64,000 nucleotides of DNA from an uncultured bacterium (GTDB taxonomy: Bacteria > Patescibacteriota > Minisyncoccia > Phycocordibacterales > UBA9973): positions 8,495-72,494 of the forward strand of contig CAITSA010000028.1 of the NCBI GenBank assembly GCA_903894955.1, in the 5' to 3' direction. The stretch's first letter is position 1. The number at the start of each line of letters is the position of its first letter. This document shows, piece by piece, positions 23,115 to 25,313 of this stretch. A program made the position numbers and the translations under genes. The notes beneath the pieces are model-generated. The model ran no database searches, was not told the origin of the DNA, and saw only the letters and a program-made list of their open reading frames with translations.

Positions 23115-25313
23115 CTATAAAAGCTTTAAAAAATCAGCTTCGTTTAGCACTTTTACCCCTAATTTTTTGGCATTTTTAAGCTTGGAACCCGGATCAGTGC
23201 CAACCACAACATAAGAAGTGTTTTTTGACACCGAACCAACTACTTTTCCACCTAAGGCAAGGATACGCTCTTTAGCTATTTCACGAGACATAGTAGAAAG
23301 CGTCCCAGTTAAAACAAAATTAAGTCCAACGAACTTGCCTACTTTTATTTTTAGTGCTTTTTCCACCACTACCCCATTTTGTTGCAATTTTTTTATAAAA
23401 TTTAAATTATTCTTATCATTAAAAAAATTACTAACACTTTTCGACACCGCTGGGCCAATATTTTCTATACTATCTATTTCTGCAAGATCTTGTTGTGTAG
23501 AAATTAGTAAATTTTCCAAAGTACCAAAATGTGTAGCTAGGTCTCGTGCCGTCTCCTCCCCTACATGTAATATTCCTAGTGTCCACAGAAATTTTGAAAG
23601 TGGTATTTTCTTTTTTTTATTTATCTCGTTTATTATATTTTCTGCTGATTTTTCTCCAAAGCGTTCTAAGGGAGCAATGTCTTCCTTAGTAAGCGTAAAA
23701 ATATCAGCTGCATCAGTTATCAATCCTTCATCTTTGAATCTTCTTAAAATTTTAGGACCTAATTCATAAATTTCAAAAACAGAAACAAAATGCTCTAAGT
23801 ATCTCTCATCCTTCGCAGGACATTTTGGATTCACGCAATAAAAAGCAACAGAAGATACTTCTGATAAAATTTTCTTCTTCACTTTTCCTCCGCAAGCCGG
23901 ACAAGTCTGGGGCATTTTGAATTTTTTTTCTTTACCGGTACGCATCCGAGTTAACACTTCCACCACTTTTGGAATTACATCCCCCGCTTTTTCTATCACC
24001 ACAGTGTCCCCTATACGCAAATCTAAGCGCTCTATTTGGTCCATATTATGAAGGGTCGCTTTGGAAACCTTAGACCCTGCCACTAGCGTCGGCTCAAAAA
24101 TTGCAAGTGGGGTTAAAACTCCAGTACGCCCAACATTAATTTTTATGTCTTTCACTATCGTCGTCGCTTTTTCAGCTGGATATTTAAAAGCAGCCATATA
24201 TCGTGGCGCCTTACCAACCACACCTAAGATTTCCTGTAATCTTAAATCATTCACCGATATCACAACACCATCTGTACCGTAAAGAAAATTGGGTCTTATA
24301 GTCTCGAATTTTTTTATGAAACTTATAACTTCATTTAAATTTTTACAAATAGCATCGTTTGGATCTACTTGAAAACCTAAATTTTTTAAATATTTATGTT
24401 TATCTGAATGATTTTCTAACACAAAAGAAGTAGTGAAATTTTCTTCACTGCGCCCTTCTTTGGGCGCATTAAGGGGAACAAAGTGGGACCCTCGCGAAGG
24501 AAATTTCACTACTTCTTTTGTGTAAAATTTTATCTCCGCTATATCATAAGCAAAAAAATCTAAATGTCTTTCCGCAGACAATTTAGGATCAAGCTGACGA
24601 AGACTTCCAGCCGCAGCATTTCTAGTGTTGGCAAAAGCCTGCCTGCCGCCTGCCTGTCCGGTAGGCAGGGCAGGCAGGGAACCTTTCCCTTCAAGTATCT
24701 TTTTATTCAATTTCTCAAGCGTCTTCTTAGACATTACAGCCTCGCCTCGAACTTCTATAAATTCTGGAAATGGTTTTGGTAGGATAAGTGGAATTGATTT
24801 TATAGTTTTAAGGTTTTGGGTTATATCTTCACCAATCAATCCATCCCCTCGAGTGGCACCCCGCACAAATTTCCCATTTTCATAAATAAGTGACACTGCC
24901 AGCCCATCAAATTTAACTTCACAGAAATAATTAAAGGACGGTCCTTGGGGAAACTCTCTTAAGGACCGTCCTTGAGAAATTTCGGGAGGCAGGAGTTTCT
25001 TAATTCTATTTTCCCAATCATAAAGTTCTTCATCTGAAAAAACATCATTTAAAGAAAGCATACGAATGCTATGTTTTACTTTCTCGAACTTATCAAGTGG
25101 TTTCCCTGCGACTCTATTTTCATCAGAATTAATATCTTCAAGTTCTGGATATTTTTTCAAGAGCTCTTTGAGCTCCCGCGACAAAGAATCATAGACATCA
25201 TCAGTCACATTAGGTGCATTTTCTGTATGATAAGCATCCCTTAATCGTGCGATTTCCGCACGCAATTTCTGTATTCTCTGTTGAGGTTTTTTATTGTTAT
25301 CAAACTTTTGCAT
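23115..25313 (-). CDS. ligA: NAD-dependent DNA ligase
   Basis: 732 aa with KxDG adenylation motif (EVKFDG), four-Cys Zn finger, HhH and C-terminal BRCT. Contains two in-frame palindromic inserts. Confidence 0.9.
24637..24680. repeat. GC-rich CTGCC/GGCAG palindromic element inserted in-frame in ligA
   Basis: gcctgcctgccgcctgcctgtccggtaggcagggcaggcaggg encodes [15 protein letters not shown] just upstream of the conserved [12 protein letters not shown] motif. Confidence 0.7.
24928..24972. repeat. tandem AAGGACNGTCCTT palindromes inside ligA
   Basis: aaggacggtcctt..(14 nt)..aaggaccgtcctt encodes [13 protein letters not shown] upstream of the KxDG motif. The same palindrome occurs intergenically at 15526-15538. 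Confidence 0.6.

Follow-up and report, generated by a model that had tools for sequence, protein, structure and literature searches.

In-frame palindromic insertions, probably mobile elements, in the DNA ligase gene ligA of a Patescibacteria bacterium

The ligA gene and its three hairpin insertions

The stretch of DNA analysed here, referred to as the window, comprises 64 kb of contig CAITSA010000028.1 from a small-genome groundwater bacterium of the Patescibacteria. All coordinates are positions in this window, which is AT-rich with a GC content of 34.7%. On its minus strand, at 23115..25313, it carries the gene ligA for an NAD-dependent DNA ligase of 732 amino acids, identified by its open reading frame (ORF), its Pfam domains and a PDB match. 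The ORF is intact: the Pfam domains DNA_ligase_aden, OB, Zn, HhH and BRCT are all complete, the product matches E. coli LigA (PDB 2owo) with an E-value of 8e-146, and the lysine of the KFDG adenylation motif is K134. The gene is interrupted in frame by three hairpin-forming segments, here called elements A, B and C, all of them inside the nucleotidyltransferase domain, where they account for about 31 (A), 13 (B) and 13 (C) extra residues. A preliminary description of the locus had reported two repeat families in ligA and a preserved reading frame. The frame is indeed kept and B and C are distinct families with distinct histories, but there are three sites, the hairpin at 24419-24523 (A) having been missed.

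The closest LigA relatives belong to metagenome-assembled genomes of the Paceibacterota/Nomurabacteria, with identities of 70–77% in local BLASTP and 76–84% in the multiple alignment and lengths between 661 and 784 residues. We aligned the window ligA codon by codon with the DNA of six relatives (loci L001-L006; further loci of relatives are numbered in the same way). Uninterrupted sites were found at the DNA level in relatives whose LigA is about 80% identical. The empty sites occur among L004, L005 and L006, and the inserts measure 39, 39 and about 93 nt and are free of stop codons. E. coli LigA (2owo) is gapped at all three places, between conserved blocks; none of the segments aligns with conserved LigA residues, the outcome that the preliminary description had named as refuting it. 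As both filled and empty sites are seen, these segments are real insertions. No known RNA family was detected at any insert by Rfam at gathering thresholds.

Element C is a 40-nt hairpin at 24934..24973 on the minus strand, delimited by repeat search, folding and comparison of filled and empty sites. Its two 13-nt arms (24934-24946, AAGGACGGTCCTT, and 24961-24973, AAGGACCGTCCTT) are separated by a 14-nt spacer at 24947-24960. The preliminary description had placed a tandem pair of 13-mers at 24928-24972, six bases off at the start. The pair is present and in frame; the arms are however reverse complements of each other and form one hairpin, a doublet of the kind known from repetitive extragenic palindromes (REPs), with a fold energy of -25.5 kcal/mol (z -4.7). 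AAGGACNGTCCTT occurs in 3 copies in the window compared to 0.10 expected, a count that no shuffle reached. The block missing from the empty sites is 39 nt long and corresponds to codons 114-126 (24936-24974). It encodes 13 residues upstream of the adenylation motif as described before, with its start lying 20 codons and its end 8 codons before K134 instead of the approximately 15 codons initially given.

In the codon alignment the C site is filled in the window, L001, L002 and L003, with the same orientation and frame in all four genomes, and empty in L004, L005 and L006. The copies at this site differ by compensatory base pairs, and the encoded peptide changes too. In the LigA tree the nearest relatives of the window, L004 and L009, lack C at the site. 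This patchy presence points either to precise loss or to repeated gain at one site; the neighbour-joining tree is poorly resolved, cannot decide between the two and supports the patchiness only. The empty site of L005 and L007 (GGG AGC TTA GCT CCC) is itself a perfect palindrome, GGGAGC-TTA-GCTCCC, with one extra codon, and could represent a preferred palindromic target or the footprint of an excised element.

Element B is a GC-rich CTGCC/GGCAG palindrome on the minus strand, recognized by repeat search, folding and codon alignment. The palindrome, in frame as first described, spans 24638-24678 rather than 24637-24680, and the inserted block covers exactly 39 nt (13 codons, residues 213-225) at 24639..24677. 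It consists of an inner hairpin, CCTGCCTGTCCGGTAGGCAGG, placed inside a second copy of its own arms, and folds with -31.8 kcal/mol. CTGCCTGCC is found 4 times in the window compared to 0.19 expected, and 0 of 100 shuffles reached 4. Within an alignment of 84 ligA genes (see below) B was found in the window genome only. A second copy of the family lies in folD at 20141..20182 (minus strand), matches the ligA copy with 89% over 45 nt and encodes ACLPGLPAGRQGRQ. This insert is exactly 42 nt (14 codons) long and in frame, with a clean empty site in L004. We considered the direct repeat around the folD copy (GTTTTAC...GATTTTAC) as a target duplication and rejected it, as it is native sequence also present at the empty site of L004. 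Small hairpins akin to B were seen in other genes, for example in L114, where the encoded peptide is LPTGQAG. Comparison with relatives also revealed a GC-rich hairpin, likewise in frame, in the gene pilD for the prepilin peptidase (28286..28321, minus strand), which encodes LLPASAGWAQAG; it is present at the same site in L027 and absent in L002, L003 and L004.

Element A, a composite hairpin of 105 nt at 24419..24523 (minus strand), was found by repeat search, folding and codon alignment. Its 28-nt arms are 96% complementary and the fold energy amounts to -58.1 kcal/mol (z -10.2). Relative to L005 it adds about 93 nt or about 31 residues (approximately 264-299). The core of the family extends from 24433 to 24509 and contains a nested inner hairpin, GCGCCCTTCTTTGGGCGC, at 24450-24467; as A is nested, at least four elements occupy the three ligA insertion sites. 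L011 and L015 carry the same family at the same ligA site in the orientation opposite to that of the window, which indicates independent insertions, and L002, L003 and L006 have different hairpins there. The inner hairpin, GCGCCCAAAGAAGGGCGC, was found again at the zinc-finger site of L030, there as part of another element. Considering all elements, B is unique to one genome and C is shared with three other genomes at this site and occurs in many other genes, from which we conclude that they are different families with different histories.

We also inspected an AlphaFold model of the ligase, as had been suggested earlier, for looped-out insertions. Residues 113-125, 211-227 and 266-296 are modelled as coil with a predicted local distance difference test (pLDDT) score <50. 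The model was derived from a shallow alignment with a mean pLDDT of only 60.9 and was used solely to mark the inserts as low-confidence coil, so that their placement in coil is supportive only.

Related insertions in other genes and genomes and a candidate transposase

Eight copies of element C were detected when the ligA-anchored loci were searched with a tolerant pattern. Four of them are located at the shared ligA site (window, L001, L002, L003). The ligA gene of L002 holds a second, inverted copy elsewhere in the gene, L012 has a copy at the zinc-finger site of ligA in a different reading frame, the copy in L067 is situated within an unrelated ORF of 609 amino acids, and one copy is intergenic. 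Copies of the same element families are present in other genes, frames and orientations. Across these 8 copies the 14-nt spacer is near-invariant, and the stems show the compensatory changes GGACGGTCC/GGACCGTCC, GGACAGTCC/GGACTGTCC, GGACGACCC/GGGTCGTCC and GGGTAGTCC/GGACTACCC.

Scanning metagenomes with the spacer pattern yielded 117 stretches, from which 100 distinct copies of C were extracted. Half of these (50/100) lie within ORFs of at least 150 amino acids, where they use all four stop-free frames (23, 16, 7 and 4 copies); the two frames containing a stop codon are not used in long ORFs. Relative to coding DNA, the element is about 15-fold denser in non-coding DNA. Perfect 13-nt arms were found in 82 of the 100 copies. 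When 30 distinct sequences were compared, 6 of the 13 stem pairs were changed on both sides (33 cells), and 0 of 500 shuffles reached the observed covariation. The flanks of 17 copies are mutually complementary over a run of at least 6 nt compared to 6.8 for permuted flanks, and some copies visibly sit inside the loop of a further palindrome (L132, L157, L164).

The positions of the intergenic copies in relation to neighbouring genes (loci L087-L203, e.g. L087, L090, L114, L152 and L174) were recorded as well. A distance of at most 20 nt from an ATG was found for 30 of 50, with a sharp mode at 6–8 nt from the start codon, and AGGA or GGAA often follows directly after ...CCTT. At most 20 nt from a stop codon are 22 of the 50, and tiny intergenic gaps are filled. 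The Shine-Dalgarno-like AAGGA and the TCCTT of the arms were considered as ribosome-binding sites of the downstream genes; with AAGGA about 20 nt away from the ATG, the spacing is unsuitable for this role.

Species-representative genomes were scanned and provided 80 further ligA loci. The alignment of 84 ligA genes contains 139 lineage-variable inserts of at least 6 amino acids, which cluster at about eight positions, one of them located in the zinc finger between its cysteine pairs. Segments of the same length from the same genes served as controls. The inserts have a GC content of 51% compared to 39% in the controls and a fold energy per nucleotide of -0.377 compared to -0.150 kcal/mol (Mann-Whitney p = 5e-44), and 78% of them fall below the 5th percentile of the control fold energy. 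The same peptide and DNA families appear at different ligA positions in different genomes, sometimes twice per gene, and the distribution of the inserts on the LigA tree is patchy. Strong hairpins amount to 0.95 per kb in ligA, 0.54 in other coding DNA and 2.18 in non-coding DNA. In-frame hairpin inserts are general in the clade and not special to the ligA copy of the window.

Two solo palindromes of similar appearance are located in the window. The first, at 15525..15537 on the minus strand, is tagged with GTAG and reads GTAGCAAGGACTGTCCTT (13-nt palindrome AAGGACAGTCCTT). It is intergenic, just past the stop codon of the ORF 15549..16130, and is the intergenic 13-bp copy noted before, one base away from the position 15526-15538 given then. 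The second, CAAGGACTACCCTTG, at 16167..16181, has an extended AT-rich stem and lies between genes upstream of the same ORF. The solo unit is a hairpin in which the stem CAAGG/CCTTG encloses a loop of 5 variable nucleotides. The pattern CAAGG-N5-CCTTG was counted 33 times in the 1.6 Mb of related loci compared to 0.2 expected, most commonly in loci with a gene for a protein resembling the REP-associated tyrosine transposase (RAYT).

These RAYT-like genes were approached with an approximate E. coli RAYT query, which gave two weak ORF matches (E-values of 6e-4 and 6e-3) that served as leads only. Both candidate ORFs match Pfam Y1_Tnp (1e-10 and 4e-7) and the NCBIfam REP-associated tyrosine transposase (3.6e-19 and 9e-10). 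An IS608 TnpA query, likewise approximate and a weak test, had no match in 2.4 Mb. Iterated searching identified RAYT-like genes in 13 of the fetched loci. The protein family is large in Patescibacteria, where it is usually named "transposase" at the source and twice, by JGI, "REP element-mobilizing transposase RayT". In five relatives the gene occupies the same type IV pilus slot between the pilin and prepilin peptidase genes, 3–4 kb upstream of ligA (L020 5731-6420, L061 6031-6708, L067 6098-6811, L066 2811-3407, L034 152-844), and this conserved slot suggests vertical inheritance.

In L127, L066, L020, L061, L034 and L067 the RAYT-like genes are flanked on both sides by palindromes of the form (G/A)TAGCAAGG-N5-CCTTGCTA. 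In L127 the palindrome is GTAGCAAGGACCGTCCTTGCTAT and in L066 TAGCAAGGACAGTCCTTGCTA, each on both sides of the gene, with variants in L020, L061, L034 and L067. The flanking copies carry (G/A)TAG, and the solo copy of the window at 15525-15537 shares its form with those of L127, L066 and L020. Elements A and B contain an internal GTAG, possibly by coincidence.

The ORF 15549..16130, which is bracketed by both solo palindromes, codes for a methyltransferase-like protein of 193 amino acids that has no counterpart at this place in relatives. It is part of a block of about 730 bp (15469-16220) bounded by an imperfect direct repeat of about 50 bp (44/50) of the 3' end of secF, of which the downstream copy keeps the ancestral SecF C-terminus seen in L004. 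The block looks like a REP-flanked gene cassette inserted in the end of secF.

Several other features were noticed in the window. A full-length match to the Rfam group I intron model RF00028 (9988-10216, plus strand, 80 bits, E-value 9e-19) runs opposite to the surrounding genes and adjoins the ORF 9210..9986, which has weak helix-turn-helix matches only, and a tRNA-Met/tRNA-Asp pair. A further hairpin family containing GTAG, with arms ACCCnGTAGTrGAwTTTGGCAA..., is present at 11019-11055, 15337-15415, 22532-22610 and 25758-25832. Comparison with L004 shows the copy at 15337-15415, immediately upstream of lemA, to be inserted. Several copies have a 3' arm that overlaps with the start of a gene and codes for the pilin-leader-like KFTTG/STTG. 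Long inverted repeats with the arms CCCGTTAGAG and CCCGTTAAAGG (27069-27208 and 27768-27846) are located at the 5' ends of the pilin-like genes 26470..27144 and 27200..27901; the repeat at 27768-27846 encloses a GC-rich island encoding KGRRSLRALVAF. Among the relatives, the genes for a type II/IV secretion ATPase and platform protein in L006 1-5500 (contig_5793) are split into several short ORFs, which probably reflects frameshift errors in the assembly of long reads and not biology.

Origin and maintenance of the insertions

Taken together, these observations make it quite likely that the ligA inserts are mobile elements of the REP type, or of the type of the REP doublet forming hairpin (REPIN), that are kept in frame in tolerant loops. 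Short, non-autonomous hairpin-forming elements would have landed in ligA and would have been retained where their length is a multiple of three, the frame in use has no stop and the site is a surface loop of the nucleotidyltransferase domain. With these properties the ligase would still be made, with 13, 13 and about 31 added residues, and we infer that the inserts are translated and looped out. Selfish elements of this kind would survive only in frame and in tolerant surface loops, and the insertion hot spots may reflect protein tolerance, a preference for palindromic targets, or both. Element C would be moved by the candidate RAYT-like HUH/tyrosine transposase; that a RAYT-like enzyme moves these elements is somewhat favoured by the data.

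A number of points weigh against this interpretation. The RAYT-like proteins score below the curated NCBIfam cut-off (69 vs 80 bits), and the best solved relative, TnpA-REP (4er8), matches weakly (E-value 0.45), with the HUH and YxxxNP motifs aligning. Iterated search found no RAYT-like gene in the 64-kb window, where the slot between the pilin and prepilin peptidase genes is empty. The ligA doublet ends without the GTAG tag present on the solo copies, and A and B are linked to no transposase. Target duplications are absent from the exactly defined junctions of B, in ligA as in folD, no consistent one surrounds the 100 copies of C, and the flanks of the latter have no conserved target motif. 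The conservation of the spacer in the 100 metagenome copies was partly imposed by the search pattern; the set of 8 copies is unbiased in this respect. Slippage could account for the growth of the (GCCT)n-like arms of B, and the structural model is poor overall.

We think it unlikely that the hairpins are kept for a function, be it as binding site of the RAYT-like protein, as mRNA stability or ribosome-pausing signal, as replication or repair cue or as co-opted enzyme loops. The stems covary and the encoded peptide changes, which speaks for a function; transposition competence or correction of one arm from the other would preserve the stems too. The shared site, orientation and frame of the doublet in four genomes speak for a function as well, whereas L004, L009 and many others have an intact ligA without each of the inserts and B is confined to one genome. 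Strong hairpins are 1.8 times as dense in ligA as in other coding DNA, intergenic copies are found 6–8 nt from start codons, and the presence of REPs in repair genes has been speculated to be more than chance (PMC3733652). On the other hand, the same elements are spread across many unrelated genes in four frames, and their 15-fold excess in non-coding DNA is the pattern that purifying selection would produce. It is similarly doubtful, in our estimation, that in Nomurabacteria-like Patescibacteria a RAYT-like transposase passed on vertically has, together with its REPINs, invaded coding sequence to an unusual extent, with the hairpins in essential replication and repair genes such as ligA being maintained by selection at the level of the nucleic acid, for example as binding sites or expression controls linked to the RAYT-like protein, or as a standing generator of new protein loops, and not just tolerated.

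Growth of the palindromes in place by replication slippage and template switching, with no insertion of a mobile element, appears considerably less probable still. The arms of B are (GCCT)n/(AGGC)n-like with the outer arms repeating the inner, arms stay perfect despite sequence variation, and the flanks of C are complementary more often than permuted flanks. Local growth, however, explains only the extension of arms or their repair after insertion. Against it stand the exact boundaries towards empty sites, the association of solo units with RAYT-like genes, and the same 40-nt sequence including a non-palindromic 14-nt spacer at unrelated loci and genomes; for both C and A, inserts at different loci are similar beyond palindromy.

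We give very little credence to the idea that the hairpins are intervening sequences which are excised from the mRNA and never appear in the protein. Excised insertions do occur in rRNA genes of this bacterial group, and stems as stable as these (-25 to -58 kcal/mol) would be good RNase III substrates. Every intragenic copy examined is nevertheless a multiple of three and stop-free in the frame of its host, and the stop-containing frames of C are never used in long ORFs, which is expected only if the inserts are translated. In bacteria, a mechanism that would re-ligate mRNA after such a cut is not known. Just as improbable are ordinary lineage-specific LigA loops that are palindromic by chance, ancestral and lost elsewhere: the inserts do occupy positions where LigA varies in length in many bacteria, but their DNA also turns up in other genes, in other frames, on the opposite strand and between genes, differs sharply from the rest of the gene in GC content and fold energy, and is patchily distributed on the LigA tree.

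Comparison with known palindromic elements

In REPINs, paired REPs form one hairpin, and their mobilisation is due to RAYT genes, which are present in single copy and have REPs on their own flanks (PMC3337134, PMC5581495). The elements described here resemble the REP/REPIN-RAYT systems (Bertels & Rainey 2011, PMC3116915, PMC3337134; Nunvar 2010; Ton-Hoang 2012) in having short imperfect palindromes as units, two of which, inverted around a spacer, make up the replicating unit as one hairpin, and in the existence of solo units. In relatives, the gene for an HUH/tyrosine transposase is flanked by palindromes (the REPtron layout), and different transposase variants pair with different palindrome variants. 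They differ in the very small doublet, which measures 40 nt including its 14-nt spacer, in the missing GTAG tag of the ligA copy, in the host phylum, Patescibacteria, and in the score of the transposase, which is below the curated RAYT threshold. The predominantly extragenic location that is a hallmark of REPINs is also missing: the inserts in ligA, folD and pilD are all intragenic, and about half of the 40-nt doublets are located in frame in long ORFs, whereas classical REPINs are overwhelmingly extragenic.

In-frame intragenic REPs, more than half of them dimers, were described by Di Nocera et al. in 2013 (PMC3733652). They encode some 20–30 residues and are found above all in genes of replication and repair, such as uvrA/B, dnaE and polA, a DNA ligase of Opitutus terrae is explicitly among the genes bearing them, and some of the dimers are nested in longer palindromes (PMC3733652). 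In-frame REPs in repair genes including DNA ligase having been published, the phenomenon itself is known. Those REPs are tagged with GTAG/CGTC and share with the present elements the occurrence as in-frame dimers in repair genes; the phyla surveyed in that study excluded Patescibacteria. By comparison, we found up to three sites per gene, 139 inserts in 84 orthologues and repeated independent hits at the same sites. In the literature searched there was no report of palindromic in-frame elements, MITEs (miniature transposable elements with inverted repeats), RAYTs or REPINs for Patescibacteria or the Candidate Phyla Radiation, which does not imply absence from the literature as a whole. What is new here is thus apparently the phylum, the small size of the doublet and how densely and repeatedly a single essential gene has been hit.

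The Rickettsia palindromic elements (RPEs; Ogata et al. 2000, 2002) are the classic in-frame selfish palindromes (PMC10969869). They are likewise found in frame in many unrelated functional genes of a small AT-rich genome, with their peptides predicted on the protein surface. RPE-1 is however 100–150 bp long and has no known dedicated transposase, while the elements described here measure 39–105 nt, and the clade offers a candidate RAYT-like enzyme for them; the two are unrelated in sequence. GC clusters of yeast mitochondrial DNA are comparable GC-rich palindromes within the coding genes of a genome rich in AT. The coding palindromes of mitochondria from Nematomorpha (PMC6649704) are also in frame and have complementary arms in an AT-rich genome. 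Both are organellar and have no associated HUH transposase. MITEs would show target-site duplications and an insertion sequence with matching ends, neither of which was found. Unlike PATEs (palindrome-associated transposable elements), which derive from IS200/IS605, insert 3' of a fixed tetra- or pentanucleotide and carry a subterminal hairpin at each end, the 100 copies of C have no fixed flank motif and form a single symmetric hairpin.

These inserts inflate the variation in protein length and can mislead gene callers, alignments and structure predictions. With them, the range of REP/REPIN-type selfish DNA inside genes of replication and repair comes to include Patescibacteria and their ultra-small genomes. 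One essential enzyme shows 139 inserts, at sites that were hit repeatedly and independently and perhaps also vacated precisely. The clade represents a natural experiment on which LigA loops tolerate 10–50 extra residues and on how new peptide segments enter proteins, and it can help to decide whether the stems of REPINs are preserved by selection or by repair.

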